The notes under the pieces: generated by a model
Database searches by the model: none
Seen by the model: only the letters and a program-made list of their open reading frames with translations
What the model was told of the DNA's origin: nothing
NCBI GenBank assembly: GCA_029560465.1
Contig: JAKQKX010000097.1
Location: 1-60,672 of the forward strand
DNA: 60,672 bases
Reading direction: 5' to 3'
DNA from: Candidatus Omnitrophota bacterium
GTDB lineage: Bacteria > Omnitrophota > Gorgyraeia > Zapsychrales > JANLHA01
Shown: in pieces, positions 1-57,936 of the stretch
Layout of the letters: every line of letters begins with the position of its first letter
Position numbering within the stretch: position 1 is the first letter of the stretch
Position numbers and translations under genes: made by a program

Positions 1-1
1 T

Positions 2-580
2 GCCGTTGCTCTTGATTTATCAGCTAACTCAACCGTGCTCGACATCGGGTGCGGAACGGGCGGCCTTTCCGTCTGCCTTGCTCGGAAGTGCAAAAACGTC
101 TACGCCGTGGACATTTCGCAAGCAATGGTCGAGGTCCTAAAGAATAAAGTCGAAGGCCACGGATTAAAGAATGTTGTACCTCGACAAGCTGGTTTTCTGA
201 CGTACCAACACGAAGGGCATGCTCTGGACGCCATCATCGCTAACATCACTCTTCACCATCTACCGGATTTCTGGAAGCAGATAGCCCTTTGTCGGCTCTA
301 CGATCTACTCAAGCCGGGCGGCAAGATGTTTCTTTCCGATGTCGTCTTTGACTTCAACCCCAGGGCCTACCGAGAGACTATTGATGGCTGGCTGGACGGC
401 ATGAGGAAACTCGCAGGCGCGCAAATGGCAGAGGAGACAGTTTCGCACGTTCGTGATGAATTTAGCACTTGGGATTGGGTGATGTCGGGGATGATCGAGC
501 GTGCTGGATTTCAGGTCGATCAAGCTCTTGAGATCGTGCCGCAGATGCGAGCGTACATATGCAGAAAAGCAGAAGAATAG
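2..580 (+). CDS. Class I SAM-dependent methyltransferase (5' truncated by window edge)
   Basis: Frame is open from nt 2. Motif I VLDIGCGTGG is present, with LKPGG later. Stop TAG at 578-580. Confidence 0.8.
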   Translation, partial: AVALDLSANSTVLDIGCGTGGLSVCLARKCKNVYAVDISQAMVEVLKNKVEGHGLKNVVPRQAGFLTYQHEGHALDAIIANITLHHLPDFWKQIALCRLYDLLKPGGKMFLSDVVFDFNPRAYRETIDGWLDGMRKLAGAQMAEETVSHVRDEFSTWDWVMSGMIERAGFQVDQALEIVPQMRAYICRKAEE

Positions 581-583
581 GAC

Positions 584-643
584 ACACAACAAGCCGGATG
601 CACGCGACAGCTTATAGCCGCCGGTGATGCGCCGGCGTTATAG
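584..643 (+). other. attC-like site A (R'' ACACAAC 584-590, R' GTTATAG 637-643)
   Basis: Arms AAC-aa-GCCGG-at-GCAC and GTGATGC-GCCGGC-GTT form an imperfect inverted repeat with bulged bases. The SD of the next ORF overlaps R'. Confidence 0.5.
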
Positions 644-654
644 GAGAAATTGAA

Positions 655-1011
655 ATGATTGTTTTATTAGCATTCGCCCTGTTGATAATTGCTGGCTCGA
701 CTATACCGGCAATAAAATTGACAAAAAAATATAAAACCATGTCGACATGGGATTGCATTTACCCCTATATCGGAATACCTCTTTGGCTTGTGCTTTCATC
801 CATGCTAAAAATCGGCCAGACTGCCACTTTATCGAATTTCGTGATCGAAAATTTCTGGATAACAGTCATTTCAATGGCTACGCCGTGGATTACTTTATTT
901 ATGCATAAAACTGGAAATAAATCAGCTGTATTAATAGCGCACGGTTTAACATTATTGCCCGTTATTTTTACAGTTGTATTAAGATTGCTGATGCAAAGTC
1001 TGCCGGAATAA
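655..1011 (+). CDS. Hypothetical small membrane protein (cassette ORF)
   Basis: SD AGGAG lies upstream. 118 aa with several hydrophobic helices. AT-rich relative to its neighbours. No family recognised. Confidence 0.55.
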   Translation: MIVLLAFALLIIAGSTIPAIKLTKKYKTMSTWDCIYPYIGIPLWLVLSSMLKIGQTATLSNFVIENFWITVISMATPWITLFMHKTGNKSAVLIAHGLTLLPVIFTVVLRLLMQSLPE

Positions 1012-1015
1012 AAGC

Positions 1016-1070
1016 CTATACCCAGCGAATCCAGCGGACGCTGACGCGCCGCTCAACTTTTTCGTTAGAC
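1016..1070 (+). other. attC-like site B (R'' CTATACC 1016-1022, R' GTTAGAC 1064-1070)
   Basis: R'' is complementary, with 1 mismatch, to the cassette-start TTATAG at 638-643. The inner stem is CAGCGGACG / CGCCGCT. Confidence 0.55.
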
Positions 1071-1086
1071 TTGGAATGGAGTTGAT

Positions 1087-1401
1087 ATGACAGTCCAATA
1101 CAAAGCTGAATTTGATAAGCTTGAATGGGAGTCCCCTATAACGGGAGTCAGGCACAAGTATATTGACCAAAATAATTTGCGTATTCGTCTTGTTGAATAC
1201 TCGAAGGAGATGCCGCTCCATTGGTGTGAAAAGGGGCATTATGGCTATCTCATCAAGGGACAATTGGAAATTGAATATGAAAATGAAAAGATAGTTTATA
1301 AATCAGGTGATGGGATCTTCATTCCTGATGGCTCCGATCACAAGCATAGAGGAAAAACTCTTACAGAAAAAGTGTTGGTTTTCTTTATTGAGAAAGTCTA
1401 A
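1087..1401 (+). CDS. Cupin domain protein (cassette ORF)
   Basis: 104 aa with a single cupin-like segment, GDGIFIPDGSDHKHRG. The stop codon is embedded in the R'' box GTCTAAC. Confidence 0.65.
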   Translation: MTVQYKAEFDKLEWESPITGVRHKYIDQNNLRIRLVEYSKEMPLHWCEKGHYGYLIKGQLEIEYENEKIVYKSGDGIFIPDGSDHKHRGKTLTEKVLVFFIEKV

Positions 1402-1452
1402 CCCGCCACTCCAGCCGACCGGCTTCGCCGGCGGTTGAGCAGCACGTTCGGC
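1396..1452 (+). other. attC-like site C (R'' GTCTAAC 1396-1402, R' GTTCGGC 1446-1452)
   Basis: R'' fits RYYYAAC perfectly and is the exact complement of cassette-start TTAGAC. The inner stem is CTCCAGCCGACCGGC / GCCGGCGGTTGAG. The CAGCAC spacer before R' is shared with site D. Confidence 0.65.
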
Positions 1453-1482
1453 GGGAATCTAAAAAATAATAAGGAGAATTTG

Positions 1483-1980
1483 ATGAAATGTTTTCGCTGT
1501 TCAAAAATAATTGATCTGCCGGGTGATGCCGGCTTGACCTGGAAACTCGTGGTCGCAAATAATACCTACCATTCCAGTCAGACGGTTCATCCTTCAATTT
1601 CTTATTCAAGCACGTTTACCTTTGATCAATACCTTAAGATAGCGCACGAGGAGGTTGTTTTATGTGCTGATTGTCTTAATAAAAGAAGAAAATTGCAGCG
1701 TAATTGTATTATTATTGGAGTAGCCCTGTTTCTCCCTTTTCTCATTACCGTCATTGTCATGGCCGGGAAACAGGTTGATACCTTCGCTAAAGTGGCTTTG
1801 ACTTTTGGAGTTATCGGCCTTCTGACAGCAATAATCGGGGGAATGTCTTTTGATGAGAGTGAATTTAACGGGATGGCTAATAACTATATTATAAATCGTT
1901 ATGTTGCTATGGGGCATTCCAATGTTGTGCTGTTTTCAGAATCGCGCTGGGAAGAGATGGTAAAAAAGAACGGCGGTTAG
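1483..1980 (+). CDS. Hypothetical zinc-ribbon-like membrane protein (cassette ORF)
   Basis: ATG is preceded by SD AAGGAG. CFRC and CADC cysteine pairs are followed by two hydrophobic helices. The upstream in-frame start at 1435 lies inside the attC-like site and is not used. Confidence 0.55.
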   Translation: MKCFRCSKIIDLPGDAGLTWKLVVANNTYHSSQTVHPSISYSSTFTFDQYLKIAHEEVVLCADCLNKRRKLQRNCIIIGVALFLPFLITVIVMAGKQVDTFAKVALTFGVIGLLTAIIGGMSFDESEFNGMANNYIINRYVAMGHSNVVLFSESRWEEMVKKNGG

Positions 1981-1991
1981 TAAAATAAAAA

Positions 1992-2059
1992 TTTTAACAA
2001 TTTCATCCACCCGGCCCTTCCCGCGCTTAGTCAGGGCGGGTGATGTCAGCACGTTAGGC
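1992..2059 (+). other. attC-like site D (R'' TTTTAAC 1992-1998, R' GTTAGGC 2053-2059)
   Basis: Stem CATCCACCCGGCCC / GGGCGGGTGATG leaves two unpaired bases on one side. A 5-7 nt unpaired spacer separates it from both R boxes. R' fits GTTRRRY. Confidence 0.65.
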
Positions 2060-2085
2060 GGCTGGAACAGAGAGGTTATCGAGAC

Positions 2086-2637
2086 TTGACCGAGATCATC
2101 CGGACATCGCGGCTTGATTTGGTGCCGGCAACGGTTGCGCTGCTTTCAGCGGAACTCGAGTCGATCAATGGGTTTGGTTCGCTTCTCGGCGCAGAGGTTC
2201 CCGAAGGGTGGCCACCCGGCCAGTACGACCGGGGAGCAATCACGTTCTTCCGGGACCGATTGAATGAAGATCCGCAGGCCTCAGGATGGTATGGTTGGTA
2301 TGCTCTATTGCGTGCGGATGGGAAACGAGGCCGGAGTCTTGTGGGGGCGGGAGGATACTTTGGCCCACCGAATCCCAATGGCGTGATTGAAATCGGATAT
2401 TCGATTGTTCCTTCCTGCGAGGGGCGGGGATACGCTACGGAGCTTGTACGAGCACTCGTGGGACACGGTTTTGCGGATAGCCGGGTTCAACGAATCGTTG
2501 CGCATACGACGCAAGACAACCCTGGCTCGATCAGGGTATTAGAGCGTGCGGGATTCCTATGCAAAGGCCCAGGTCAAGACCCCGGCCTCCTCGAGTATTC
2601 GGTCGATCGTCCAGCCGCCATCCGTTATGAGATGTGA
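2086..2637 (+). CDS. GNAT family N-acetyltransferase (RimJ/RimL-like)
   Basis: TTG start. N-terminal IRTSRLDLVP and acetyl-CoA motif region EGRGYATELVRALVGHGF. Visibly GC-richer than the flanking cassette DNA. Confidence 0.8.
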   Translation: MTEIIRTSRLDLVPATVALLSAELESINGFGSLLGAEVPEGWPPGQYDRGAITFFRDRLNEDPQASGWYGWYALLRADGKRGRSLVGAGGYFGPPNPNGVIEIGYSIVPSCEGRGYATELVRALVGHGFADSRVQRIVAHTTQDNPGSIRVLERAGFLCKGPGQDPGLLEYSVDRPAAIRYEM

Positions 2638-2649
2638 AAAAGGAATAAA

Positions 2650-2838
2650 ATGTACGCCTTGATTTTAAACTGGGATTTATCGCAAAAACCAAAAGAAATA
2701 TTCCAGACATTGCGGGAATATATAAAAAACGAATCCTGGAAAAGGTATGAAAATAAACCGGGATTAGTCCAGAAAACATGGTATTCCAACCAGGAAACCG
2801 GACAAAACCTGCGGTCTTGCCGGTTATCTTTATGTTAG
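2650..2838 (+). pseudogene. Possible decayed YdhR-like (small monooxygenase-like) gene fragment
   Basis: The 62-aa ORF contains KPGLVQKTWYSNQETG, which resembles my recollection of the YdhR core. A +1 frame continues as GLAGYLYV, resembling the next conserved block, then terminates. The ORF is too short for the family. Weak call from memory. Confidence 0.25.
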
Positions 2839-2856
2839 CCATAAACAAGGGAAAAA

Positions 2857-3702
2857 ATGCCTCCGTTAGATACAGTGAGTAAAGCATATCGAGTGCCGTT
2901 CAGTTCTTTTATTCCATTTCTGCTGATTTCGTTCGGCTTGGCTTGGGGGATTCTTGGTTTATACATTTTTTTCCCGGAAAAAATGGTGTCGGGGTTTGGT
3001 CAGATCACCGGCAACCATCCACTCTTTTTTCTGGCGGTGTACGCGCCTGCCATCGCGGCGTTCATTCTTGTTGCCCGCACCGTTGGCCTTGCCGGCCTAC
3101 GGCGCTTCCTCGCCCGAGCTTTGCTCTGGCGCTGCGGCGCGGGCTGGTATGCCTTTCTGATCATTGGCATTCCGTTGATCTTCATTGGCGGTTCCGCGCT
3201 TAGAGGGAACCTTTTTTCGGAACCGTTTCCCTTTGCGTCCTTTCAGACTCTGCTCGTGGCGTTAGTCCTTGCCGCCATCAAAGGCCCGATCGAGGAGTTC
3301 GGCTGGCGTGGTTTCGCGCTTCCTCTTCTGCAAAGGAAGTTCGCCCCGATCTGGGCCGGGCTGATTCTTGGTGTCATATGGGGGGTGTGGCATCTTCCAG
3401 CGTTTCTGTTGAGCGGAACCCAGCAGAGCGAGTGGTCGTTCACTGCGTTCTTTGCTGGATGCTTAGCGATAAGCGTTATCGTGACGGCACTGTTCAATAG
3501 GTCATATGGCAGCATTCTGCTGTCGGCAGTTTTTCATTTCCAGTTGATGAACCCGATCTTTCCCGATGCCCAACCCTACGACACGTACCTGTTAATCATC
3601 GTCGCCAGCCTAATCGTCTGGTTGAACCGCAAGGATATGTTTACAAAGGACGGGGCAGTTGTGGACGTCGTTCCGAACCAGAGGAAAGTGACCGGTGGCT
3701 AA
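2857..3702 (+). CDS. CPBP family intramembrane glutamic endopeptidase (CAAX protease/Abi-like)
   Basis: Polytopic. Motifs EEFGWRG (EExxxR), GVWHLP (FxxxH-type) and AVFHFQLMN (HxxxN). Confidence 0.85.
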   Translation: MPPLDTVSKAYRVPFSSFIPFLLISFGLAWGILGLYIFFPEKMVSGFGQITGNHPLFFLAVYAPAIAAFILVARTVGLAGLRRFLARALLWRCGAGWYAFLIIGIPLIFIGGSALRGNLFSEPFPFASFQTLLVALVLAAIKGPIEEFGWRGFALPLLQRKFAPIWAGLILGVIWGVWHLPAFLLSGTQQSEWSFTAFFAGCLAISVIVTALFNRSYGSILLSAVFHFQLMNPIFPDAQPYDTYLLIIVASLIVWLNRKDMFTKDGAVVDVVPNQRKVTGG

Positions 3703-3768
3703 CCATGTCATGCACTCGGAGGGGAATTCCGCTTCGCTCCATTCCCTCCGGTGATGGCCACGGTGGAC
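3697..3768 (+). other. attC-like site F with degenerate R' (R'' GGCTAAC 3697-3703, R' GGTGGAC 3762-3768)
   Basis: The long imperfect stem CATGTCATGCACTCGGAGGGGAAT / ATTCCCTCCGGTGATGGCCACG has bulges. R'' is complementary, with 1 mismatch, to cassette-start TTAGGC at 2054-2059. R' reads GGT instead of GTT. Confidence 0.5.
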
Positions 3769-4107
3769 CATTATCCCCCTCAATGGGAACCCCCTTCAGG
3801 AGCTGGACCCTTCCGAAGAAATTGAATTCCTGCTTGTTCCCAAAAACGGCATCAAATCTTTCCTCCTGTGCGAGAAAGAAAACGGCACCCACATCGCCGC
3901 CGGCGTGTGGTATGTTTTCTGCCTGGGCGCGTGAGTTTCTTCAGCTTCCCAAAGACTGACTTTGTGATTTGATACAGGAAATAAACTAAAAACTCTTGAT
4001 ATACGAAGTTCCGTATAAGTGATATTACAGGGCAAATGGATACCATTTTATAAAAAACAGGGCTATAATAATGGAAAAACAGCGTAAAATTGGATTATTC
4101 TAATGGT

Positions 4108-4158
4108 AAGCAACAAAATTAACCAGGGAATGGATAAGTCGTTAAAGAATTGTTAGCG
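4108..4158 (+). other. attC-like site F2 (R'' AAGCAAC 4108-4114, R' GTTAGCG 4152-4158)
   Basis: Short nested palindrome: GCAACAA..TTAAC / GTTAA..TTGTTAGC. R' and its flank are the exact 10-nt complement of the R'' region at 4969-4978. Confidence 0.5.
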
Positions 4159-4163
4159 ATGAA

Positions 4164-4967
4164 TTGAGAAATGAAATGACGAAAAGATATTCAAATACTG
4201 GGAAATTAAATGAACATCCTTTTGTAAAAGATATTCTACGAGATGCTATGAAGGTTTCAATGGCACTTCAAGTTAAGGGTACAGTTTTCAAAGTAGATGC
4301 AAAATACAAGCGTGACCCAACATCAGCTGAATTCTATTGCATCGGCACAGGAAGTTCTATTGCCCATTTAATGGGGATTTGCCAACAAATGGAACATTCT
4401 GTTCTATATTTTTCATCTTTTACTCCAACAAAAAAAATGAAAGAGGCTGGGATAACAAGACATAGTCATTTGCTATATTGTATTGAGAATTATATCATAC
4501 GCACTCAATCAATGTACGATCGAGTCCTTAGGTTAGTAGATAAAGTTTTTTATTTATATAATCCAACCCACCTAATTTCTCATGAATTAATAATAAGTAA
4601 TTCACACATTCTCAATTCTGATATTCCATCAAAATTAAAAGCCATTAGGAAATGTATTAAGGATTATTACAGAGATAGAAATGAGATTATGCATGAGAGG
4701 CAATATCTCGAAAGTGATCTTCGTAGACTGGAAGGTTATACAATATTATTAGATAAAGAACCTTTTAAAAATGATAAATACTTTATGATGGATGTTAAAG
4801 ACATGACGAGAGAAATTATTAAGGGTAAAACTAATACTTTTACATCTGTTAATAAAAATGTCCTTAATGCAATTGCAGATCTATTTGATGCTTTGTTTAA
4901 AAAATATCAATCTCAACTTAAAATTCTTGAAGCAATTTACGGTAAGATGGAAATGGTAACCCAATAA
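4164..4967 (+). CDS. Hypothetical protein with HEPN-like Rx4-6H motif (cassette ORF)
   Basis: Very AT-rich and predicted all-helical. Motif YYRDRNEIMHERQY lies in the C-terminal half. The true start may be the ATG at 4176. Confidence 0.45.
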   Translation: MRNEMTKRYSNTGKLNEHPFVKDILRDAMKVSMALQVKGTVFKVDAKYKRDPTSAEFYCIGTGSSIAHLMGICQQMEHSVLYFSSFTPTKKMKEAGITRHSHLLYCIENYIIRTQSMYDRVLRLVDKVFYLYNPTHLISHELIISNSHILNSDIPSKLKAIRKCIKDYYRDRNEIMHERQYLESDLRRLEGYTILLDKEPFKNDKYFMMDVKDMTREIIKGKTNTFTSVNKNVLNAIADLFDALFKKYQSQLKILEAIYGKMEMVTQ

Positions 4968-4969
4968 TT

Positions 4970-5034
4970 CGCTAACAAAATGCTCTACCCGACTGGCGAA
5001 AAAACCCGCCAGCCGGTAAGCATCGGCGATAAGG
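4970..5034 (+). other. attC-like site G with non-canonical R' (R'' CGCTAAC 4970-4976, R' GATAAGG 5028-5034)
   Basis: Stem ATGCTCTACCCGACTGGCG / CGCCAGCCGGTAAGCAT with bulges. R'' is the exact complement of GTTAGCG at 4152-4158. Confidence 0.6.
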
Positions 5035-5044
5035 AGAAATAAAT

Positions 5045-5377
5045 ATGGATGATATTATCGCAGTGGCGGTAATACTAAAAAATAAGAAGAGACAGTACTT
5101 TTTAACTTGGGGGCGAATTCAGGACAATATTGATTCATCTGAAGTTGAGAAGCTGGTTTTGGAATATAGCAAAATTTGTGAATTGGGATCAGAACCGATG
5201 AAGGCGCAAATATGCAGAACCTTACAAGAGGCTAAAAAAGCGCCATATTTCTATGAATATTTTTTTGTTATGGCGCAGAAAACAATTCCTTACGGGAAGA
5301 CATATGAAAAGTGGCGAGAAAAGATGAATAAGAAAATGAAAAACGGAAAAGAAATATATTATCTTGGAAAACAATAG
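5045..5377 (+). CDS. Hypothetical protein (cassette ORF)
   Basis: SD AAGGAG. 110 aa, AT-rich, with a lysine-rich C-terminus. No family recognised. Confidence 0.5.
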   Translation: MDDIIAVAVILKNKKRQYFLTWGRIQDNIDSSEVEKLVLEYSKICELGSEPMKAQICRTLQEAKKAPYFYEYFFVMAQKTIPYGKTYEKWREKMNKKMKNGKEIYYLGKQ

Positions 5378-5448
5378 CCTTATATCAAGTCACTACAGCG
5401 GACGACGCTTCGCCACCTGCGGCGGCTCGCGCCGCCGCTGAGTTCCGA
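5378..5448 (+). other. attC-like site H (R'' CCTTATA 5378-5384, R' GTTCCGA 5442-5448)
   Basis: CCTTAT is the exact complement of cassette-start ATAAGG at 5029-5034. The inner stem CAGCGGACG / CGCCGCTG is shared with sites B and I. Confidence 0.5.
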
Positions 5449-5559
5449 GGGACAGGGTATCGAGGTGGTTTGATTCATAAGCGAATTAGGTGCATGTCGC
5501 CGGAATTATTACGGAGTTCGGATTACGGGATGTGTTTAAAAATTTTGAGGTAAAAATTT

Positions 5560-6084
5560 ATGAAAAACCTTTTTGAATCTTCTTTCTCCTGGCTTCTTTC
5601 TGATTACTCCAACCATAACTTTTTCTGTGAACGGGATATTGTCTGGACTTTGCAAAAGTACATTCTTGGGGAAATAAAGGATAAGCAATTGCCGTTCAGC
5701 CTTTTTAATGAATGGCCGATGGAGCCGAAAAAACAATATGCCGACCTGGTGATCGGCGCGAAAACCAGTGTAGAGCAGTTTAAGCCGGAAGAGATACTTG
5801 AAGTCAAATATGAACCTGACCGAAACCGCAAAATATTTTTGAAGACAAAATTTCCGGTAGTGAGTTTAAAAGAATTCAAGAAGGATATTGACAGAGTTAG
5901 TGATTTTGTTCGAAAGGGAACAGTCGAGGCCGGTTATTGTTTGTTTGTGGATGAGGGCGGATATTATAAAGAGGATCATGCCGCGCTTAAGGATGCTGAG
6001 CGTGTTTCTTCGGATAATAACGGCCCGGTATTTTATTTGTTCAAGTTTAGATCCGGTGCCACAAACGCGGACGCTGCACCCTGA
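5560..6084 (+). CDS. Hypothetical protein, possible PD-(D/E)xK nuclease fold (cassette ORF)
   Basis: SD GAGG. The ordered motif candidates CERD, YADLVIG and LEVKYE match an E...D...ExK arrangement. Short-motif inference only. Confidence 0.4.
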   Translation: MKNLFESSFSWLLSDYSNHNFFCERDIVWTLQKYILGEIKDKQLPFSLFNEWPMEPKKQYADLVIGAKTSVEQFKPEEILEVKYEPDRNRKIFLKTKFPVVSLKEFKKDIDRVSDFVRKGTVEAGYCLFVDEGGYYKEDHAALKDAERVSSDNNGPVFYLFKFRSGATNADAAP

Positions 6085-6119
6085 CGGATACTTTCACCGT
6101 TTGACTTGGAAAATTATGG

Positions 6120-6159
6120 GGACATAATACTTATTTATTGTGAATTAAGTATTGTGTCC
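6120..6159 (+). terminator. AT-rich 14-bp hairpin followed by CTTTG (possible terminator or extra recombination-site remnant)
   Basis: GGACATAATACTTA / TAAGTATTGTGTCC, with one G-U if transcribed from the + strand, and an approximately 12-nt loop. The U-tract is weak. Confidence 0.3.
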
Positions 6160-6179
6160 TTTGAATTACCTGCTTGAAT

Positions 6180-6244
6180 AAACAACACATAAAATCATTT
6201 CAGTGGACGTTGTTACACGCCGCTACTGAATTCTAATGTTAGGG
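6180..6244 (+). other. attC-like site I (R'' AAACAAC 6180-6186, R' GTTAGGG 6238-6244)
   Basis: Inner stem TTCAGTGGACG / CGCCGCTACTGAA with bulges. It belongs to the same inner-stem family as sites B and H. Confidence 0.5.
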
Positions 6245-6252
6245 CAAGGCAA

Positions 6253-6750
6253 TTGAACGCAATGGTTTCTAGTATGTTGGCTCAAATGAGTCGTACGCGC
6301 ATCTCGAAGGATGACTTCACGGAAGCGTCTGAGTACTTAAACGCAATGCGCGGTCGTCAAGCGGTTGTGGTCAAACGAGCACTTCTCTTTGCTGCCATAG
6401 TTGCCTATGCAAGACCCTTTACGGAAAACGAAGACAAATTGGGGAGGGCAACGACATTCCTAAAGGCTAGCCTATCTAGGATTCTGAATCAATCGGAGCA
6501 AGCTCAGCATGACAAGCTGCTTTCTCTTCGTGACGAGGCGCTTGCCCACTCACAGTTTGATCGAAAACCCATCGTTCGCGTCAGAGGATCGAGTTCGGGC
6601 TTTTTGATGAAAGGCCGGCCATTCGATATTCTTGCCGAGCCAATCAATCTGGAGCTGTTTGGTTCATTGTGTTCAAAAATGGAGCGGCATTGTGTTAATC
6701 AACTCTTTGACCTTAATCGCAAACTCGATGCTCTCAAATCAAAGTCTTAA
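6253..6750 (+). CDS. Hypothetical protein with HEPN-like Rx4-6H motif (cassette ORF)
   Basis: 165 aa and helical. Motif LLSLRDEALAHSQFDR. The ORF-track start is TTG; the ATG at 6262 is an alternative. Confidence 0.45.
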   Translation: MNAMVSSMLAQMSRTRISKDDFTEASEYLNAMRGRQAVVVKRALLFAAIVAYARPFTENEDKLGRATTFLKASLSRILNQSEQAQHDKLLSLRDEALAHSQFDRKPIVRVRGSSSGFLMKGRPFDILAEPINLELFGSLCSKMERHCVNQLFDLNRKLDALKSKS

Positions 6751-6808
6751 CAACAGCTTTGAGAGCGATGCGTAGAAGACAACGCGCGCCTTAATCTGAG
6801 CGTTAGAG
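6745..6808 (+). other. attC-like site J (R'' TCTTAAC 6745-6751, R' GTTAGAG 6802-6808)
   Basis: Imperfect inverted arms flank a short loop. R'' overlaps the stop codon of the preceding ORF. The SD of the next ORF follows R'. Confidence 0.45.
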
Positions 6809-6828
6809 GAGGACAACAAGGAGGAAAA

Positions 6829-7245
6829 ATGGATGCGATTACTTTTAGAGGGATCGAAAGGCTTTTAATAATAATTGGTGCCGTGGTTTACGGTTATTTA
6901 GGTTATCGTTTATACATTAAAGGAATCACAACGGGAGAAGATAATCTGAAGTTTGGATCAAAGGTTGTGAAAATCATTCTTTCTGGCACTAGCCCCGGAT
7001 TATTTTTTATGGCATTCGGTGCAATTGTACTTATCACATCAGTTGTGACCGGTGGTGCTTCTATTAAAGAAGATTTAAAAGAACAAACAATAAGGATGAG
7101 AACTGGCCCAAGCCCATTAGGAGAATTAAACATAAAGATTGAGGACCCACAAGATATAATAAATGCACCTGGCAACGAAACATTACACAAAAAAGTATTA
7201 CAGGATAATCTTATTTATGATAAAAATGAATCTCTAAAAAAGTGA
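6829..7245 (+). CDS. Hypothetical membrane protein (cassette ORF)
   Basis: SD AAGGAGG. Two hydrophobic helices followed by a polar tail. AT-rich. Confidence 0.55.
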   Translation: MDAITFRGIERLLIIIGAVVYGYLGYRLYIKGITTGEDNLKFGSKVVKIILSGTSPGLFFMAFGAIVLITSVVTGGASIKEDLKEQTIRMRTGPSPLGELNIKIEDPQDIINAPGNETLHKKVLQDNLIYDKNESLKK

Positions 7246-7252
7246 AGTACTG

Positions 7253-7385
7253 CCCTAACCACACAATTCACGCTGACCTCAACCAGCGCATCGCTGCACG
7301 CCGGCTCTTGCTCCGCATCTTGTCTGGTGGTAATTTTCGGCAAGTACTTTGCTATGGTTTCAGCGGATAATTGCGGTCGTTAGGC
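7253..7385 (+). other. attC-like site K, terminal and longest (R'' CCCTAAC 7253-7259, R' GTTAGGC 7379-7385)
   Basis: The outer arms TGCCCTAACCACACAATTCACGCTGACC (7251-7278) and GGTTTCAGCGGATAATTGCGGTCGTTAGGCA (7356-7386) are near-complementary with bulges. R'' is complementary, with 1 mismatch, to cassette-start TTAGAG. Confidence 0.65.
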
Positions 7386-7478
7386 ACAGGATGACAAAAA
7401 ATAAGAAATAATAGTGCCGGGTACCAATAATTTCCAGAGATTATTCCAGTAACCCTAGATTTACAGAAATGACGATCC

Positions 7479-8639
7479 ATGACTAAAAGAATCCCCTGGT
7501 TGCTCGCCGTTTGCCTGGGCGCGTGCGGATGCGCGTACATGCTGGGGCTGTATTATGATGTGCGGGTGACATTGGTCCAATCCAACGCCGGCACCGTCAC
7601 CAACTCCCGGGGGGAGGCGTATTCTCTTCATCAGGAGCAGAAAGTGAAAAGTTACGGGTGCGGGGACGGGTATTTTACAGACACCCTTTACACAAGATAT
7701 TCTTTGGTGTCCTCCTCCGGGCAGGACATCACGCGAAAGGAGTACCGGGAGGACATGGCCGCAAAGATGTTCTTAGGGCGGGATGACAGCCTGGTGCTTG
7801 TGTTCGAGAATAACCGCCGGACCGACATTTTTGTCCTGGCCTATCCGTATACAAAGGCGGAAAAGATCCCGGACACGCGGCAGGCTTTGGCCAGCGGGGA
7901 AGACTTGATCCGCGTTTACGCGCTGCGGCGCCTGGCCATGGACGCGTTCAACCGGATGGATTTTTATGCGGGCGGCGATGAGAACAATAAAAAGCTGGCG
8001 CGGGAACTTTATCAGCGTTTGGGTGACGAGGCGGTCACCGCCCTGGAAATCCTTTCGGAAGCGGCGCCGCGTTGCGCCGACCGGGATTGCCATTCTTCCA
8101 GTTTTCCGATTCAGGTGTCGAACCTGCAAAGTATGCTCGGGGCCTCGCCGGGCATACTGTATTGCCGGAACCTTCAGCCCGGGTTAACCCTGGGCCTTTC
8201 CGCCGGTAAGGACGCGTATCAGGCGGGGGATCAGGTTGTGCTGACATTGCGGTGGCATAACGCGGGCGATACCAGCGTTGAATTGGCGTTTCAGGAAAGC
8301 GATGTGCTGCGGCGCATGGTGCGGCTGACGGACGGCAAGGACAAGGCGTTTATCGTGAGGACTGTTCAGGTTGAGGACGATGTTGAGCACAGGGTGCCGC
8401 TTGAGCCGGGAGGCGTTTATGAATACCGGCTCACCGGGGAAATCCGCCGGGAAGACCTGGAAGATCCATATCTTAAGGAAATCCAGCAGAGGGGCGGCAA
8501 CCTGATCCTGCGGTTTCAGGGGGCGGTCCTGTCGCGGATGCCCGTGTTGTTGAAGAAGCCGGATACCATTTATGTTAAAGCCCAATATGCCGGTTCTTTG
8601 TGCTCGAATTCAATTTGGTTCAAGATCAGCGAACCGTAA
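7479..8639 (+). CDS. Hypothetical lipoprotein
   Basis: Signal peptide with the lipobox-like LGAC. 386 aa. No family recognised. Confidence 0.55.
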   Translation: MTKRIPWLLAVCLGACGCAYMLGLYYDVRVTLVQSNAGTVTNSRGEAYSLHQEQKVKSYGCGDGYFTDTLYTRYSLVSSSGQDITRKEYREDMAAKMFLGRDDSLVLVFENNRRTDIFVLAYPYTKAEKIPDTRQALASGEDLIRVYALRRLAMDAFNRMDFYAGGDENNKKLARELYQRLGDEAVTALEILSEAAPRCADRDCHSSSFPIQVSNLQSMLGASPGILYCRNLQPGLTLGLSAGKDAYQAGDQVVLTLRWHNAGDTSVELAFQESDVLRRMVRLTDGKDKAFIVRTVQVEDDVEHRVPLEPGGVYEYRLTGEIRREDLEDPYLKEIQQRGGNLILRFQGAVLSRMPVLLKKPDTIYVKAQYAGSLCSNSIWFKISEP

Positions 8640-8654
8640 TCCCGAAAGGAACCC

Positions 8655-9845
8655 ATGAAAAATATTCTTATCGGCATCCTTGTCCTCGCGGCCGGCGCCG
8701 GGGCGTATTATTTTGCCCGCAGCCGCGGCCAGTTAGAACCGCTTTATCCGCCGCCTTACGTGGCGATTTACGGGCGGGACGCCTGCGGATATACCCAAAA
8801 ATACCGGCAGGACATCAGCGCTTTGAGCATGCGCTCCTATTCGAAAGATATTGACGACCCGGCAACGGCGGATGTCTTGCACAGCCGCATGGAAAAGGCG
8901 GGGCTGGACACCTCGCGCTATGAATTGCCGGTGCTGGACGTGAACGGGAAAATTTTTATCCGGCCCCCCATGGACCAGGTCATCAAGGCGTATCAAGAAT
9001 CTGCGGCAGAGAAATCCGGAATCAAAAAATTTGGAATTAAAAAGCCGGAAATTAAAAAGCGCGCCCCCGGCTTTTTCAAAGACAAATTGACGCTGGAAGG
9101 CGTCAGTTTAGGGGACCCGGCCATGGCCGTGATCAACGGTGAGGTGGTAGGCGTCGGTGATGAGGTGGCCGGCTGCAAGATTATTGAAATAGAAGAATTT
9201 TCCGTCAGGTTAAAAGACAGCCAGGGGAAGGATATCACGATATCGTTAGGCGGGCAGGCGGGCGCCGCGCCGAAAACCTCGCCGCCTAAGCCGGCGCCCC
9301 AGGCGGCACGGGACGCGACCGCTCTGGAATCCTTCCTGGACCGGCTGCCCCCTCCGCCGGACGGGTTTGAATGGTTTAAAATGGCGGAGATCAAGGCCGC
9401 CATCCTTGCCCCGAAGGGCTGGCACGTCAAACATCAGGACCTGGGGGATAAAAAGATTTGGGCTGTCAGCAAAGAAAATGCGGATGCGCGGGACGGTTTT
9501 CAAACCGGCCTGACATTTATATCTTTTCAAAACGTCGCCACCCAGCCGCAGGGCCGTGTCCTGCCGTCGCAATTCGCGAAAGCCATGGCCGATGAAATTG
9601 AAAGCCGGTATAAACTTGAAAGGCGGGAACATGGCCCGAAGGGGCCGTTTTGGGGCTGCCTTTATCAATATGTCGAAGATTCGCCGGGGAGGGAGCCGGT
9701 CAGGATATTTCATTCTTTGGTGGCCAATGACCGGACCGGGACATTGTTTCAAATCATTTTTGAAGCCCCTGTCGCCGCCTGGGACGCGGAATGGCCCGTG
9801 GGGGATGTCATTACCAAGAACATCGTGTTGGACGATGAAATATAA
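8655..9845 (+). CDS. Hypothetical secreted/anchored mosaic protein
   Basis: N-terminal hydrophobic segment. Glutaredoxin-like stretch VAIYGRDACGYTQKY. Three 5-aa K-rich repeats are encoded by tandem 15-bp repeats at about 9018-9062. The block LEGVSLGDPAMAVINGEVVGVGDEV is GspB/PilP-like. Confidence 0.5.
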   Translation: MKNILIGILVLAAGAGAYYFARSRGQLEPLYPPPYVAIYGRDACGYTQKYRQDISALSMRSYSKDIDDPATADVLHSRMEKAGLDTSRYELPVLDVNGKIFIRPPMDQVIKAYQESAAEKSGIKKFGIKKPEIKKRAPGFFKDKLTLEGVSLGDPAMAVINGEVVGVGDEVAGCKIIEIEEFSVRLKDSQGKDITISLGGQAGAAPKTSPPKPAPQAARDATALESFLDRLPPPPDGFEWFKMAEIKAAILAPKGWHVKHQDLGDKKIWAVSKENADARDGFQTGLTFISFQNVATQPQGRVLPSQFAKAMADEIESRYKLERREHGPKGPFWGCLYQYVEDSPGREPVRIFHSLVANDRTGTLFQIIFEAPVAAWDAEWPVGDVITKNIVLDDEI

Positions 9846-9907
9846 TTTTTTGCGCTTTTTCGGCCGCTTCATATCGTGTAGAAGGAATATTTAACCAAGG
9901 AGGAGAC

Positions 9908-10333
9908 ATGTCAGACGTTAAACGGAAAGTTATTGATCTGTTAAAAACACCGCAGTTGTCCAGCCTCGCGACGATGACCCTGGACGGGAAACCCTGGGCC
10001 CGTTATGTCATGATCAGCTCTGACGAAAACTTTAATATCCGTTCGGCGGTCTGCCTTGAATCCAGGAAAGTAAAACAGATCGAAAAAAACCCGGAAGTGC
10101 ACCTGACCTTTGGAATAAACGATCCCCGGGACATGGATAAGCCTTATGTTCAGATTCAGGGGACGGCAAGCATAACGACGGATCAGCAGGAAAAGAACCG
10201 TTATTGGTTTGAAATGCTTTCGGCCGTGTTTAGCGGGCCGGAAGACCCTAATTATGCGCTTATGCTCATTAGGCCTTATCGCGTGGAATTCAATAGCCCG
10301 GGGAGCATGGCCCCGGAGGTTTGGGAGAAATAA
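9908..10333 (+). CDS. Pyridoxamine 5'-phosphate oxidase family protein (general stress protein 26-like)
   Basis: 141 aa with the pattern LATMTLDGKPWARYV ... VHLTF ... YVQIQG. Strong SD. Confidence 0.7.
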   Translation: MSDVKRKVIDLLKTPQLSSLATMTLDGKPWARYVMISSDENFNIRSAVCLESRKVKQIEKNPEVHLTFGINDPRDMDKPYVQIQGTASITTDQQEKNRYWFEMLSAVFSGPEDPNYALMLIRPYRVEFNSPGSMAPEVWEK

Positions 10334-10389
10334 AATATTGCCGCGGCGCTGGTCTGCTGAACCCTCGAAAAGTGTAAAAGGATTTAAAA

Positions 10390-11070
10390 ATGATGAACCT
10401 GATTTCTGTCCTGTTTTTCCTGCTTTTGCCGGTTGGCGCGTATTTCGCGGCAAAACGGTTTTATCCGGAATTCGTCTGGGCTGTTACAGGGGCCTGCGTG
10501 GGCATGATCATCACGCCTGTCAGTGAGAATTTATTAAGGTATTCCGATGTGTTCGCGCGGATTTATTTTTTCCATCAAAACGCGTTTGAGGCCCTGTCTC
10601 TGGGCGGGCGGGCCGGCTACCTGCATTTTGTGATCACAAACGGAATTGTGTGGGGCCCTGTTTATGGCTTTCTCGGCTTTCATTTGGGCAGATTAAGAAA
10701 ACGGTGCTTTTTGAATCCCCGGGAAGTCCCGTTTCCCGGAACTTTATTGTTAAAATTCAAGGAATTGTCCGACCTCACGTTCCCGCTCATGATGTGTGTC
10801 TGCCGGCCGCGGGGCCTGGAAAATACCGACGCGGCTAAACTTTTTGAAGCCCACTGCCCCAAGTGCGCCGCGAAGATGGACCCGGACGTTTTGCTGGAAG
10901 TCGCGGCTTTGTCGGCCGGCTCCTTGCCGGTGGCCGGCGGCATCCCCCAGGGTTGCCCTCACTGCGGGAGCCGCAAACTGGCCATAAAATTATTTGATCT
11001 CACCGATGATGAAAAACAGAATTTATTGAAAGACAAATTTTTTAAGAAGATCGCGAAGAAAGGAATTTGA
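10390..11070 (+). CDS. Hypothetical membrane protein with C-terminal zinc ribbon
   Basis: N-terminal helices, then CPKC ... CPHC pairs. The stop overlaps the start of the next gene (ATGA). Confidence 0.55.
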   Translation: MMNLISVLFFLLLPVGAYFAAKRFYPEFVWAVTGACVGMIITPVSENLLRYSDVFARIYFFHQNAFEALSLGGRAGYLHFVITNGIVWGPVYGFLGFHLGRLRKRCFLNPREVPFPGTLLLKFKELSDLTFPLMMCVCRPRGLENTDAAKLFEAHCPKCAAKMDPDVLLEVAALSAGSLPVAGGIPQGCPHCGSRKLAIKLFDLTDDEKQNLLKDKFFKKIAKKGI

Positions 11071-11771
11071 TGGACGGCCTTTATGTGATGTTGTTGTGGT
11101 ATTTCGTTTTTCTGCTTTCCCTGGTTGCGCACGAGGCGAGCCATGCCTGGGCGTTTATGAGGCTGGGGGATGACACGGCTTACGAAGAGGGGCAGGTGAC
11201 GCTGGATCCCGTTCCCCATATGCGCCGGGAACCGGTGGGCACGGTGCTTGTGCCGTTATTGACCTATTTTTTAAACGGCTGGATGATGGGGTGGGGCAGC
11301 GCGCCGTATAACGCGCGTTGGGCTTATCATTATCCCCGGTCTGCGGCCTGGGCGAGCTTCGCCGGGCCTTCGGCCAACCTCGGCCTTGCTGTTATTGCGG
11401 GAATCATCATCCGCACCGGAATTTTTTTCAACCTGTTTTATGCGCCGGATTCAATCAATTTTGATACTGTCGTGGCGACGAGCCGCGGGGGGATCATCCA
11501 GCCCTTGACCTTCCTGTTGAGCATCACCTTCTCTCTAAATGTTTTACTGTTTATCTTCAACCTCCTGCCGTTCCCCCCTCTGGATGGGAGCGGCGTTATC
11601 CCGTTGTTTCTCCGGGGGGAAGAGGCGGCGGTGAAATATTTGCATTTCATCAGCAATCCGTCGTTCCAGATTTTCGGCCTTTTAATGGCCTGGCATATTA
11701 TGGATTTTATTTTCTATCCTGTTCATATGGGGTTTGTGAACGCGATGTATTGGGGGCTGGCGCATTATTGA
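11067..11771 (+). CDS. Site-2 protease family (M50) metalloprotease
   Basis: HEASHAW (HExxH) lies in a transmembrane helix, with NLLPFPPLDGS later. Confidence 0.85.
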   Translation: MMDGLYVMLLWYFVFLLSLVAHEASHAWAFMRLGDDTAYEEGQVTLDPVPHMRREPVGTVLVPLLTYFLNGWMMGWGSAPYNARWAYHYPRSAAWASFAGPSANLGLAVIAGIIIRTGIFFNLFYAPDSINFDTVVATSRGGIIQPLTFLLSITFSLNVLLFIFNLLPFPPLDGSGVIPLFLRGEEAAVKYLHFISNPSFQIFGLLMAWHIMDFIFYPVHMGFVNAMYWGLAHY

Positions 11772-11849
11772 TGGATTCTTGAAAAAGGGATACAATGATC
11801 CCAATGGCCGCACGGACCAGATGTTTAGCTTGAAGGAAAGGGGAACTCT

Positions 11850-12245
11850 ATGACGGAAGTATCAATACTTTTAGTGGCCCAGTATATTCTGAAATTAATC
11901 CGGCATTTTATTTATATTGATAAAATCCCCCCGTCTTGCCTGATGCGCGAGGAGATCGTGGGTGACAGCGCGAAGGTCCCGGTTGTGTCTATAATTTTTA
12001 TCGGCCTTTGTATATTTTTAATTATAAAGAAAGAAAAAGCCGGGTATTTTCTCGCCTGGTGTATTTCAGCGTTTTCCATTTTTTCGGTTTTTTCCTATGG
12101 ATTATATTTTCATGTTGTGGTCAATGAAATATCCGCGGGGTTTATCGCGTTAAATATCCTGCTGTTATTTGTAAGCGTGAAAACAATCTATCGTGTGCGA
12201 GGGCTGAAAATAAACAACTTTTTTAATAAGAAAATAAAAGCCTGA
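11850..12245 (+). CDS. Hypothetical membrane protein
   Basis: 131 aa with about 3 hydrophobic helices. AT-richer than its neighbours. Confidence 0.45.
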   Translation: MTEVSILLVAQYILKLIRHFIYIDKIPPSCLMREEIVGDSAKVPVVSIIFIGLCIFLIIKKEKAGYFLAWCISAFSIFSVFSYGLYFHVVVNEISAGFIALNILLLFVSVKTIYRVRGLKINNFFNKKIKA

Positions 12246-12305
12246 CAAGCCGCTTGGCAGGGCGCCCCGCCGGGAACCTTGTGTTAACAATAAGGAGGAA
12301 AAGCA

Positions 12306-12950
12306 ATGGCCATTAATGAAGAACTGTTGAATTTCGTCAGGGATGCCCTGGCGCGCGGGCTTCCGCGGGTCCAGATTGAAGACGCTTTGCTGAAGGCGGG
12401 TTGGGATTCCGCGCAGGTGAAAAGCGCGATGACCGCTTACGCGGAGATCCCGTTCCCGATTCCGGTGCCGCGGCCCAAGCCCTACCTCTCCGCGCGCGAG
12501 GCGTTCATGTACCTTGTCCTTTTTACGACGTTATATATCAGCGCGTTCAACCTCGGGAGCCTGATTTTCCAATTCATCGAGCGCGCGTTCCCGGACTCGG
12601 CCGCGTCCTCCGGTTACAATTACACGCGGGAGGCGATCCGTTGGGCGGTCTCGTCCCTTATCATCGCGTTCCCGGTTTTCCTTTATTTATCCCGGTTGCT
12701 TAGCGGCGCGGTCAGGCGCGACCCGGTCAAGCGCGCGTCGAAAGTGCGCAAGTGGCTGACGTACATAACGCTGTTTATCACCGCCGGTGTGATTATTGGC
12801 GATTTAACGGCCCTGATTTATAATTTTCTGGGCGGGGAGATGACCGCGCGTTTCTTCCTGAAAGTGCTGACGGTCGGGGGTATCGCCGGCGCGGTTTTTG
12901 GCTATTACCTGCGCGACATGCGCGCGGAAGAAGCGGAGATCAAATCATGA
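12306..12950 (+). CDS. Membrane protein resembling DUF5671 family
   Basis: Soluble N-terminal helical module (LNFVRDALARGLPRVQIEDALLKAGW), then 4 helices with LYISAFNLGSLIFQFIERAFPD. Family assignment is from memory. Confidence 0.5.
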   Translation: MAINEELLNFVRDALARGLPRVQIEDALLKAGWDSAQVKSAMTAYAEIPFPIPVPRPKPYLSAREAFMYLVLFTTLYISAFNLGSLIFQFIERAFPDSAASSGYNYTREAIRWAVSSLIIAFPVFLYLSRLLSGAVRRDPVKRASKVRKWLTYITLFITAGVIIGDLTALIYNFLGGEMTARFFLKVLTVGGIAGAVFGYYLRDMRAEEAEIKS

Positions 12951-13375
12951 GAGGGCGGGGGCAGGTTGTTTTCACCGCGGCGGTCGTTGTCGTGGTCGTG
13001 GCTGCGGTGGCCGGCGGGCTTTTCTTGCTCGGGTCTCCGGCCCAGGAGCGAATACGGCGCATAGACGGCCAGAGGGTGTCTGACTTAAGCGCGATGGCCG
13101 GAGCGGTCGACCTTTATTGGACGCGCCACACGCGGCTGCCGGCTTCGCTGGAAGAGCTCGCGGCGGAACCCGGGGCTTACGTAAAACGCGGGGATCCGGT
13201 CACCCAGCGGCCTTATGAGTACAGGGCCCGCGAAGGCAACGCCTATGAGTTGTGCGCCGCTTTCGACCGTGAATCAACGGCCAGTCAGCCGGGAGGCTAT
13301 TATTACAGGGATTTCTGGGCGCATGGGGCTGGCCGGCAGTGCTTCAAGCTTGAAGCGCAGGAGATCAAACGGTAG
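12947..13375 (+). CDS. Hypothetical membrane-anchored protein
   Basis: ATGA overlap with the upstream gene. A valine/alanine-rich anchor is followed by a small globular domain. Confidence 0.5.
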   Translation: MRGRGQVVFTAAVVVVVVAAVAGGLFLLGSPAQERIRRIDGQRVSDLSAMAGAVDLYWTRHTRLPASLEELAAEPGAYVKRGDPVTQRPYEYRAREGNAYELCAAFDRESTASQPGGYYYRDFWAHGAGRQCFKLEAQEIKR

Positions 13376-57862: not shown

Positions 57863-57936
57863 GCGCCTGTAGCTCAGATGGATAGAGCGCGGCTCTCCTA
57901 AGGCCGGCGTGGGTGGTTCGAGTCCACCCAGGCGCA
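57863..57936 (+). tRNA. tRNA-Arg (anticodon CCT)
   Basis: A 74-nt cloverleaf folded by hand. Acceptor GCGCCTG/CAGGCGC. D arm GCTC-AGATGGATA-GAGC. Anticodon stem CGGCT/GGCCG with loop CTCCTAA. T arm GGTGG-TTCGAGT-CCACC. Discriminator A. No encoded CCA. Confidence 0.9.

Follow-up and report, generated by a model that had tools for sequence, protein, structure and literature searches.

A probable composite integron gene-cassette array in the chromosome of a Candidatus Omnitrophota bacterium

The stretch of DNA analyzed here (the window) is a whole contig, 60,672 nt in length, and comes from an uncultured Candidatus Omnitrophota bacterium from anaerobic digesters. Positions 1–7385 very probably represent a chromosomal integron gene-cassette array that is composite, carries about 11 mobile cassettes and, on present data, is operationally a cluster of attC sites lacking integron-integrases (CALIN). 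This reading is based on the matches of the attC sites to covariance models, on an asymmetry in the folding of the two strands, on a closure rule by which the start of a cassette is complementary to the R'' box of its own attC, and on a homologous cassette that is bounded at the same G|TT elsewhere. The same evidence supports the integron-style array proposed in a preliminary description of this DNA. The composite nature was missed there: a chromosomal remnant at positions 3776–4152, with an attI-like entry site, interrupts the array and divides it into a left and a right part. The kind of system is already known, and what is new is an example in a little-studied phylum. Omnitrophota is an uncultured phylum, partly ultra-small-celled, and a full-text literature search found no description of integrons in it.

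Each unit consists of an open reading frame (ORF) on the + strand followed by its own attC, and the G|TT in the R' box is where neighboring units abut. This layout is the signature of IntI-type recombination of circular cassettes via the folded bottom strand of attC, and the cassette junctions were presumably made by IntI. All plausible ORFs in positions 1–7385 are on the + strand with a purine run resembling a Shine-Dalgarno sequence ahead of each, as had been described. The label "promoterless" given to them cannot be shown, i.e., promoter-like matches are at chance level (18 vs 13.3 +/- 4.3). The array has a mean GC of 0.436 and its units range from 0.32 to 0.54 (standard deviation 0.064), compared to 0.534 (standard deviation 0.043) in the flank; the units are thus AT-richer and compositionally more heterogeneous. 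The jumps in composition between units noted previously are present, and the DNA after position 7385 is more even, yet not uniform as had been stated, since 2 of 88 flank blocks have a GC below 0.45.

Twelve sites are found in the array, eleven of the attC type and one termed site F. All are imperfect palindromes, 51–133 nt in length with site F included. The eleven attC-type sites are 56–133 nt and fold as DNA with -5.8 to -19.7 kcal/mol. Palindromes of 51–133 nt that open with an AAC box, close with a GTT box and stand after almost every ORF were correctly recognized in the preliminary description. Its count of ten was too low, attC D2 at positions 2784–2840 having been missed. Site F is not matched by the attC models and is attI-like by position. 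The R'' (RYYYAAC) and R' (GTTRRRY) boxes are found in all eleven attC-type sites, and both AAC and GTT are canonical in seven. The sites share architecture and end boxes and not sequence; the mean pairwise identity is approximately 0.53.

Rfam holds no attC family, and two covariance models, R1 and R3, were used as substitutes for the attC model of IntegronFinder. R1 represents the R and L helices of 17 different hand-cut attC sites from ten class 1 integron arrays in PLSDB, which were located by the 5'-conserved-segment sequence. The sites are those of ereA2, arr-2, cmlA5, blaIMP, aac(6')-Il, blaGES, catB6, aac(6')-31, aadB, dfrA1/14/15, blaVIM, aadA1/2, aac(6')-Ib-cr and blaOXA-1. As a control, R1 recovered 20 sites in the ten plasmid loci, 17 of these being its own training sequences. 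A further model, R2, in which the class 1 attC model was refined by realignment, was no better than R1. R3 was made from eight attC sites that are not in the window. A complete integron contributed three of these, a related genome and an upstream contig two each, and an unrelated array one.

A search of the whole window by R1 with filters off shows seven matches of at least 9.9 bits in the array, all on the + strand (D, H, C, J, E, I and A), and five of these (D, C, J, E and A) end exactly as drawn beforehand. There are four comparable matches in the other 114 kb of two-stranded space, which gives an expectation of 0.26 in the array and a Poisson P of ~1e-8. When R1 is applied to positions 1–7500 only, it also detects G, the 3' end of B, the 3' end of K and the new site at positions 2784–2840. 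With R3, the eight best matches of the window on both strands are all in the array (H, D, I, C, G, A, D2 and K), followed by J and B. Together R1 and R3 match 11 of the 12 candidate sites, with F matched by neither; this is the outcome, by substitute models, of the covariance-model check named beforehand.

The individual sites, all on the + strand, are as follows. In the left part, attC A (584–643) extends from R'' ACACAAC to R' GTTATAG and scores 9.9 bits by R1 and 17.5 bits by R3. The attC B sequence (1015–1070) has R'' CCTATAC, with the deviant triplet TAC, and R' GTTAGAC; R3 scores it at 9.6 bits (positions 1020–1070) and R1 finds only the 3' end. Site C (1396–1452; GTCTAAC ... GTTCGGC) scores 15.7 bits by R1 and 21.6 bits by R3 and ends exactly as predicted. 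Site D (1992–2059; TTTTAAC ... GTTAGGC) has 25.4 bits by R1 (E 2.8e-4, whole window) and 24.8 bits by R3. Site D2 (2784–2840; TTCCAAC ... CCGGTT ... GTTAGCC) has 14.0 bits by R3 and 5.4 bits by R1. Site E (3697–3768) has R'' GGCTAAC and a degenerate R', GGTGGAC, scores 10.7 bits by R1, and is the right end of the left part.

In the right part, attC G (4970–5034; CGCTAAC ... GATAAGG, deviant GAT) scores 18.2 bits by R3 and 6.8 bits by R1. Site H (5378–5448; CCTTATATC ... GTTCCGA) has 28.4 bits by R3 (E 5e-5) and 17.5 bits by R1, and is 82% identical to an attC of the related genome L038, which is described below. Site I (6180–6244; AAACAAC ... GTTAGGG) has 23.8 bits by R3 and 10.2 bits by R1 at positions 6187–6244. 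Site J (6745–6808; TCTTAAC ... GTTAGAG) has 12.0 bits by R1 and 11.9 bits by R3, with exact ends. The last site, attC K (7253–7385; CCCTAAC ... GTTAGGC), is 133 nt in length, scores 13.4 bits by R3 with exact ends and forms a hairpin of -19.7 kcal/mol. GAT or ATC in place of GTT or AAC is seen in three linked boxes: R' GATAAGG of G (5028–5034), R'' CCTTATATC of H (5378–5386) and R'' GCTATATC at approximately position 1650 of L018, a contig that extends the array upstream. Two of these, the R' of G and the R'' of H, are parts of a single cassette, and therefore the non-canonical triplet was apparently already present in the circular form.

A comparison of strands by DNA folding parameters, with sites from relatives added to those of the window, shows the bottom strand to be the more stable of the two in 15 of the 16 sites folded. 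An excess of unpaired bases on the '' arm is found in 11 of 16 sites, +1 to +7 nt and mostly +1 to +3; in the class 1 controls it is found in 13 of 17, +1 to +3. Four sites (A, B, I and F) have the opposite excess. In this bottom-strand folding check, which had been proposed earlier, minimum free energy folds do not resolve the individual extrahelical bases.

The closure rule was put forward in the preliminary description, and all six sequence strings quoted there are present where it placed them. Closure is exact or nearly exact in 7 of the 11 window cassettes, two of which (cassettes 2 and 8) require a 1–2-nt gap; the rule is poor in cassettes 4, 5, 9 and 10. Pairing of own R'' with own start gives 27 matches (positions 4–10, ungapped) vs 19.8 +/- 3.2 for permuted pairs (p = 0.02), and pairing of R'' with R' within one site is no better than chance. 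One pairing given earlier, TTAGGC/GGCTAA, is superseded: the R' GTTAGCC of D2 is the exact complement of the R'' GGCTAAC of site E at position 3697. Because of this complementarity, the acetyltransferase gene and the protease gene on either side of D2 represent separate cassettes.

The rule can be used as a predictor across contig breaks. The R'' of site A, ACACAAC, predicted that GTTGTGT opens the methyltransferase cassette at a point off the contig, and this sequence is seen on contigs L016 and L018. The full-length methyltransferase gene is on 1.1-kb contigs that reach 424 nt beyond the window, and the site upstream of it ends in ...TTCGTTGTGTGAGG. Closure is also exact in five of five cassettes of a complete integron (L031, the 6.4-kb Logan contig SRR22388160_594846), in the first four cassettes of L038, in two of three cassettes of the related genome L029 and in a cassette upstream of the window that encodes an HNH endonuclease. 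Over four related arrays, the majority of the cassettes read follow the closure rule.

The methyltransferase cassette recurs in a same-strand array on contig L035. The L035 gene product (P0002) is the closest homologue found, with 78% aa identity. The homology is 76.5% at the nt level; it begins no more than 2 nt away from G|TTGTGT and ends in the attC, which likewise has R'' ACACAAC and a recognizably similar sequence. The neighbor genes and the bases after the attC G differ. This is the pattern expected of a mobile cassette, and the cassettes of these arrays are modular. Another homologue (P0009, 72% identical) was rejected as a second instance, being in an ordinary chromosomal context and not in an array.

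The position of the array on the chromosome is conserved. Orthologues of the flank genes led to the syntenic locus in three relatives, L023 (228-kb contig), L029 (GCA_964489065.1, 471 kb) and L038 (3.36-Mb contig). The gene order in all three is ...HD-(YbeY)-RecO-...-2-Hacid_dh-YceI-(DUF3592)-NUDIX followed by a variable region, which in L023 and L029 ends at the orthologue of the 386-aa gene of the window (position 7479 onward). In the window, the left side of this locus is represented by a NUDIX pseudogene (3776–3934, + strand) that consists of the last ~50 codons with an upstream in-frame stop and is 87.7% identical at the nt level to the NUDIX 3' end of L029. Downstream is a promoter/operator-like block (3997–4070, + strand) with the palindrome TATACGAAGTTCCGTATA at positions 4000–4017, the sequence GGCAAATG and TATAAT at positions 4064–4069. 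The block is conserved in L023, L029 and L038 and may act as a Pc-like promoter, i.e., a promoter of the cassettes; a simple sigma-70 scan does not call it.

Site F (4108–4158, + strand) follows, with a putative crossover at G4152|T4153 in AAAGAATTG|TTAGCG. Its left half is fixed in the four genomes, and cassettes start after the G|TT. In the relatives, the variable DNA starts at this constant position downstream of the NUDIX gene, and in two of three (L029 and L038) it contains attC cassettes. Window positions 3776–4154 are 87% identical to the NUDIX 3' end and intergenic sequence of L029, and homology to L023 and L029 stops within 2 nt of G4152. The junction AATTG|TT is found at the first cassette of L029, of L038 and of integron L031. 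In L029 three cassettes follow ...AAAGAATTG|TTCGGAG, and two of their attC sites score 14 and 30.2 bits by R1. In L038 an array of ~9 kb follows ...AATAATTG|TTATGTG, with HEPN, Abi_alpha and VapBC cassettes. The terminal attC sites of L029 and L038 are without GTT. Site F may function as an attI site. Cassette content is wholly different among the four genomes with ~89–93% flank identity, which implies turnover on that timescale.

As to the build of the composite, the left part comprises at least six cassettes in the window and at least two more upstream, bounded further upstream by an IS110-family insertion sequence (IS) that interrupts an attC. It ends at the degenerate site E, joined there to the remnant of a resident platform, i.e., the NUDIX 3' end, the promoter/operator-like block and attI-like site F. 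The right part consists of five cassettes from exactly G4152|TT to attC K, ending ~50 nt before conserved chromosomal genes. Any movement of the cassettes would depend on an IntI encoded elsewhere.

The DNA left of position 1 is represented by two contigs found by exact match, L018 (3 kb, contig DAOOSE010000148.1 of a metagenome-assembled genome, "bacterium isolate AMR_MDS_2527") and L019 (Joint Genome Institute, JGI). From left to right these show an antiparallel IS110-family transposase gene (PF01548), the IS end and the 3' remainder of an attC ending in GTTATGC. The HNH-endonuclease cassette (attC 20.1 bits by R1), a 103-aa ORF cassette and the methyltransferase cassette follow. The upstream look for intI and attI proposed earlier thus reaches two cassettes and then an IS110 element; no intI is present in the assembled stretch, and the contig break lies beyond. 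IS110-family elements are located a few nt after an attC R'', always antiparallel to the cassettes, in L018 (1–550), L031 (~960–1560) and L038 (14290–15530 and 16600–17840). At least two different elements are represented, with transposases 25% identical. The two copies in L038 are identical, each ~8 nt after the AAC of an attC. The best full-length homologue of the L018 transposase is 66% identical, and an 86%-identical fragment is located on L031. The IS1111-attC elements of clinical integrons have a similar insertion behavior. BLASTP detects no similarity between the L018 transposase and that of plasmid L013, whose smr attC carries an IS110-family element.

Integron L031 bears on site F. 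It encodes an IntI of 417 aa (370 bits with TIGR02249, cut-off 265), divergent from six or seven cassettes whose attC sites include three of 44.6, 22.3 and 20.5 bits. The first cassette starts ...TTAATTG|TTGTGC. Its IS is 88% identical at the nt level to the IS upstream of the window and is likewise directly after an R'', and the two systems have an attC family in common (...AACAA.TCA.TACAGCGG ... CCGCTGA.TTC..GCGTT...). The intI-junction region is collinear with the block of the window: palindrome TATACGAA..TTCGTA, TAAGTG.TATTA and GGCAAATG. The local score of this alignment is 66 vs 38.8 +/- 6.6 for dinucleotide shuffles and is reached by 1 of 500. In contrast, the divergent IntI gene of L031 has in its place a co-oriented NUDIX gene at the Omnitrophota loci, and there is no cassette in common. 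The L031 IntI is a singleton, with no other copies found. These comparisons are suggestive, although not strong, of site F and the upstream block being an attI/Pc-type platform of the integron family of L031, with NUDIX where intI would be.

No tyrosine recombinase is found in the 60.7-kb window by tblastn with IntI1, in agreement with the preliminary description; in L023, L029 and L038, the 10 kb to the left of the locus have neither a recombinase nor intI. One explanation, possible though not probable, is that a complete sedentary chromosomal integron is present and the window holds its distal part; the intI and true attI would be past the left contig end and the IS110 element, with the left part joined to the resident NUDIX-side array by rearrangement. 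The array does have at least two further cassettes upstream, with an IS beyond them, the 88%-identical IS lies inside a complete integron with a bona fide IntI (L031), and the attC family of site H is common to L031 and L038. Every assembly breaks in this region, so an intI may have been missed. However, in the three relatives the left side is fully assembled and has housekeeping genes (HisRS ... YceI, NUDIX) and no intI within 10 kb, and the 53 kb of the window to the right is without intI as well. Another reading, with a similarly low but slightly smaller probability, is that the array is a fossil: its cassettes date from past acquisition, the integrase has been lost from the lineage, the sites are decaying and there is no recombination today. 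The mutated core triplets in E, G, H and B, the terminal attC sites of L029 and L038 without GTT, the 99.96–100% identity of the array in at least five metagenome samples and a sole strain variant that is not at an attC are consistent with such decay. It is difficult to reconcile with the complete difference in cassette content among four related genomes, and with canonical boxes and bottom-strand asymmetry kept in most sites. As a third account, the palindromes might be ordinary hairpins, e.g., rho-independent terminators or repeats like repetitive extragenic palindromic (REP) elements, since they stand just after stop codons and form stable hairpins. This is effectively refuted: none of the sites coincides with a terminator-like site or has a T-run, they have a common structure and end boxes rather than a common sequence, they are confined to 7.4 of 60.7 kb, models trained on clinical integron attC sites match them, and homologous cassettes break at G|TT. 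The REP-type dispersal that had been named as a refuting observation is not seen, with no comparable model matches in the 53-kb flank and sites that are dissimilar.

A tentative proposal, possible though not probable, is that a lineage of Omnitrophota has retained an integron platform without an integrase at one constant position in the chromosome, with cassettes turning over between related genomes. The platform would consist of the conserved operator/promoter block and the attI-like AATTG|TT directly downstream of the NUDIX gene. Such a platform with cassette turnover would require IntI in trans, supplied by another part of the genome or by mobile integrons of the L031 type that are present transiently. 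The choice offered by the preliminary description, between a distal chromosomal integron and an attC cluster without integrase, was correctly framed; on present data the second is the operational description.

Several observations weigh against an integron cassette array as described here, or against parts of it. Four sites have one deviant triplet each (R'' TAC in B, R'' ATC in H, R' GAT in G and R' GGT in E), a degeneracy overlooked in the preliminary description. The scores with the substitute models are modest, 10–28 bits; site E is found by R1 only and has no match with R3, and site F has no match with any attC model. The closure rule fails or is weak for cassettes 4, 5, 9 and 10, and the junction between E and NUDIX does not fit a canonical G|TT exchange. 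The variable region of L023 has other genes and no attC detectable by R1. The assignment of site F as attI, suggestive and not strong, draws on its position and on the modest alignment to L031, in AT-rich sequence and with 1 of 500 shuffles reaching the score. The left end of the array runs into an IS110 element and a contig break, and an intI could lie just beyond. Finally, the only strain variant seen breaks inside a gene, and current recombination is not evidenced in the data examined.

That strain variant was found in a comparison of assemblies. The same array is present on five other contigs from at least five metagenome samples, with 99.96–100% identity. The ends of these contigs cluster at window positions ~103–441, 2108, 2532 and 7434, and every contig with the first complete ORF breaks inside the methyltransferase cassette. 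In L018 and L019, which are independent assemblies, the methyltransferase gene is truncated at window position ~139 (L018 position 2036) and fused to the tail of another cassette, after which comes a DUF6653 cassette. The breakpoint thus lies within the gene and not at an attC. The variant probably explains the fragmentation of assemblies at this place.

Comparison with known systems shows both similarities and differences. A CALIN is defined as two or more attC sites on the same strand, spaced by less than 4 kb and without an integron-integrase nearby, and 83% of CALINs have fewer than six attC sites (PMC4889954). The window has 11 attC sites with a maximum spacing of ~1.2 kb and no intI; the DNA left of the upstream IS110 is unassembled and the CALIN label is therefore provisional. 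As in CALINs, the cassettes here are mostly of unknown function, none are resistance genes, and IS elements are associated. Unlike most CALINs the present array is large, and it is at a locus conserved across related genomes, with a putative attI-type entry site and promoter block. With sedentary chromosomal integrons of the Vibrio superintegron type it has in common a lineage-fixed chromosomal position with content that differs between relatives. Also shared are at least 13 cassettes, mostly hypothetical, plus HEPN and GNAT genes, and toxin-antitoxin-type genes in relatives. It differs in that no intI is adjacent or was found, the attC sites are heterogeneous (56–133 nt, ~53% identity) and not a species-specific repeat, and the array is far shorter than Vibrio arrays. 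It is thus not classed with these integrons, despite the conserved position. Class 1 mobile integrons have the same attC architecture and G|TT crossover logic, and the class 1-only model R1 finds seven sites. The IS110-family insertion in attC is also similar in position and orientation to that in the smr attC of plasmid L013. However, there is no intI1, attI1, 3'-conserved segment or resistance gene here, the host is in a candidate phylum and the location is chromosomal.

The locus indicates that Omnitrophota take part in the cassette economy of anaerobic digesters, with methyltransferase, cupin, GNAT, CPBP protease and HEPN cassettes, and Abi and VapBC in relatives. Four related genomes share one entry point, at least three without a neighboring integrase, and represent a natural test case for the origin of CALINs. 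The same locus could test whether CALINs stay active through a trans-acting integrase. The lineage-conserved and apparently integrase-less entry site beside NUDIX is the most interesting residue of this analysis.

The cassettes, all on the + strand, are numbered from the left. Pfam names five of the cassette proteins, and six further ORFs are without a family. Cassette 1 is represented by its 3' part (1–637), with a class I SAM methyltransferase ORF to position 580 (Pfam Methyltransf_25/11); the full protein (P0001), on contigs L016/L020, is 238 aa and 100% identical. Cassette 2 (638–1064) has an ORF at 655–1011 (118 aa, no family) and starts with TTATAG, compared to CTATAC in its own R''. Cassette 3 (1065–1446) encodes a cupin (1087–1401, Pfam Cupin_2); its start, GTTAGACTT, fits its own R'' at 9 of 10 positions. 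Cassette 4 (1447–2053) has a 165-aa ORF of no family at 1483–1980. Cassette 5 (2054–2834) encodes a GNAT acetyltransferase (2086–2637, Pfam Acetyltransf_3), which is followed by ~150 nt without a called gene; JGI calls no gene in 2638–2856. Cassette 6 (2835–3762), split from it by attC D2, encodes a CPBP/Rce1-like intramembrane protease (2857–3702, Pfam Rce1-like). An 84-aa ORF at 3705–3959 is not regarded as a gene: it overlaps attC E, and where it crosses the NUDIX remnant it is out of frame.

Cassette 7 (4153–5028) encodes a HEPN-domain protein (4164–4967, Pfam HEPN_Cthe2314) and its start, TTAGCGA, is the exact complement of TCGCTAA in its R''. Cassette 8 (5029–5442) has a 110-aa ORF of no family at 5045–5377, with ATAAGG at its start and CCTTAT in its R''. 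Cassette 9 (5443–6238) has an ORF of 174 aa at 5560–6084. It also has a 52-nt inverted-repeat element at 6119–6170 (GGACAtAATACTTAtttattgtgaatTAAGTATTgTGTCC), which is 94% identical to L023 positions 7783–7834, above the ~90% identity of the flank. The element is directly upstream of an attC-like palindrome in both the window and L023, and in the window it overlaps a promoter-like TTGACT-16-CATAAT at positions 6101–6128. It may represent an operator or promoter carried by a cassette. Cassette 10 (6239–6802) has an ORF of 158–165 aa at 6253–6750, without a family. Cassette 11 (6803–7379) has a 138-aa ORF of no family at 6829–7245, with one mismatch between its start, TTAGAG, and its own CCCTAA. 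PADLOC on ten cassette proteins found nothing convincing, with one borderline match, to the HEPN protein (E 0.0097). In both the window (Cthe2314) and L029 (10884–11516, Swt1-like), the cassette that directly follows site F encodes a HEPN protein, although of different families. In L038 the second cassette (11837–12784) encodes a RiboL-PSP HEPN protein and is followed by the Abi_alpha cassette.

The conserved chromosomal flank starts with positions 7435–13375 (+ strand), from the lipoprotein-like 386-aa gene onward, and is ~89–90% identical at the nt level to L023 and L029 from positions 7435/7475. The relatives have nothing that corresponds to the ~50 nt (7380–7434) separating the last R' box from the conserved chromosome. 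In contig L002 the final 18 nt, directly after position 7434, differ from the window. These two observations hint at variation at the distal boundary of the array. An M50-like peptidase gene of the window flank (11067–11771) has a 69% nt homologue in L038 (17950–18651) that is located between two attC sites inside the array, and the end of the L029 array carries a duplicated 102-nt fragment of the start of a PNPOx gene. Some flank genes may represent old fixed cassettes, or the array end may be prone to rearrangement. In L023, positions 4993–5071 represent a c-di-GMP-I-GGC riboswitch aptamer (RF03167, 60.2 bits, gathering threshold 59). It is located between YceI and the small-ORF/DUF3592/NUDIX genes, directly upstream of the gene adjoining the cassette entry site. 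Apart from the array, the window is ordinary chromosome, with genes for PPDK, GlyRS, PolX, PhoH, a Hel308-like helicase and others. The PPDK, GlyRS and Hel308-like helicase proteins fall into clusters, at 90% identity or more, with proteins labeled Candidatus Omnitrophota by NCBI, and the host label is taken from these. The sole Rfam match in the window at gathering thresholds is a tRNA gene at positions 57863–57936 (RF00005, 57.7 bits).

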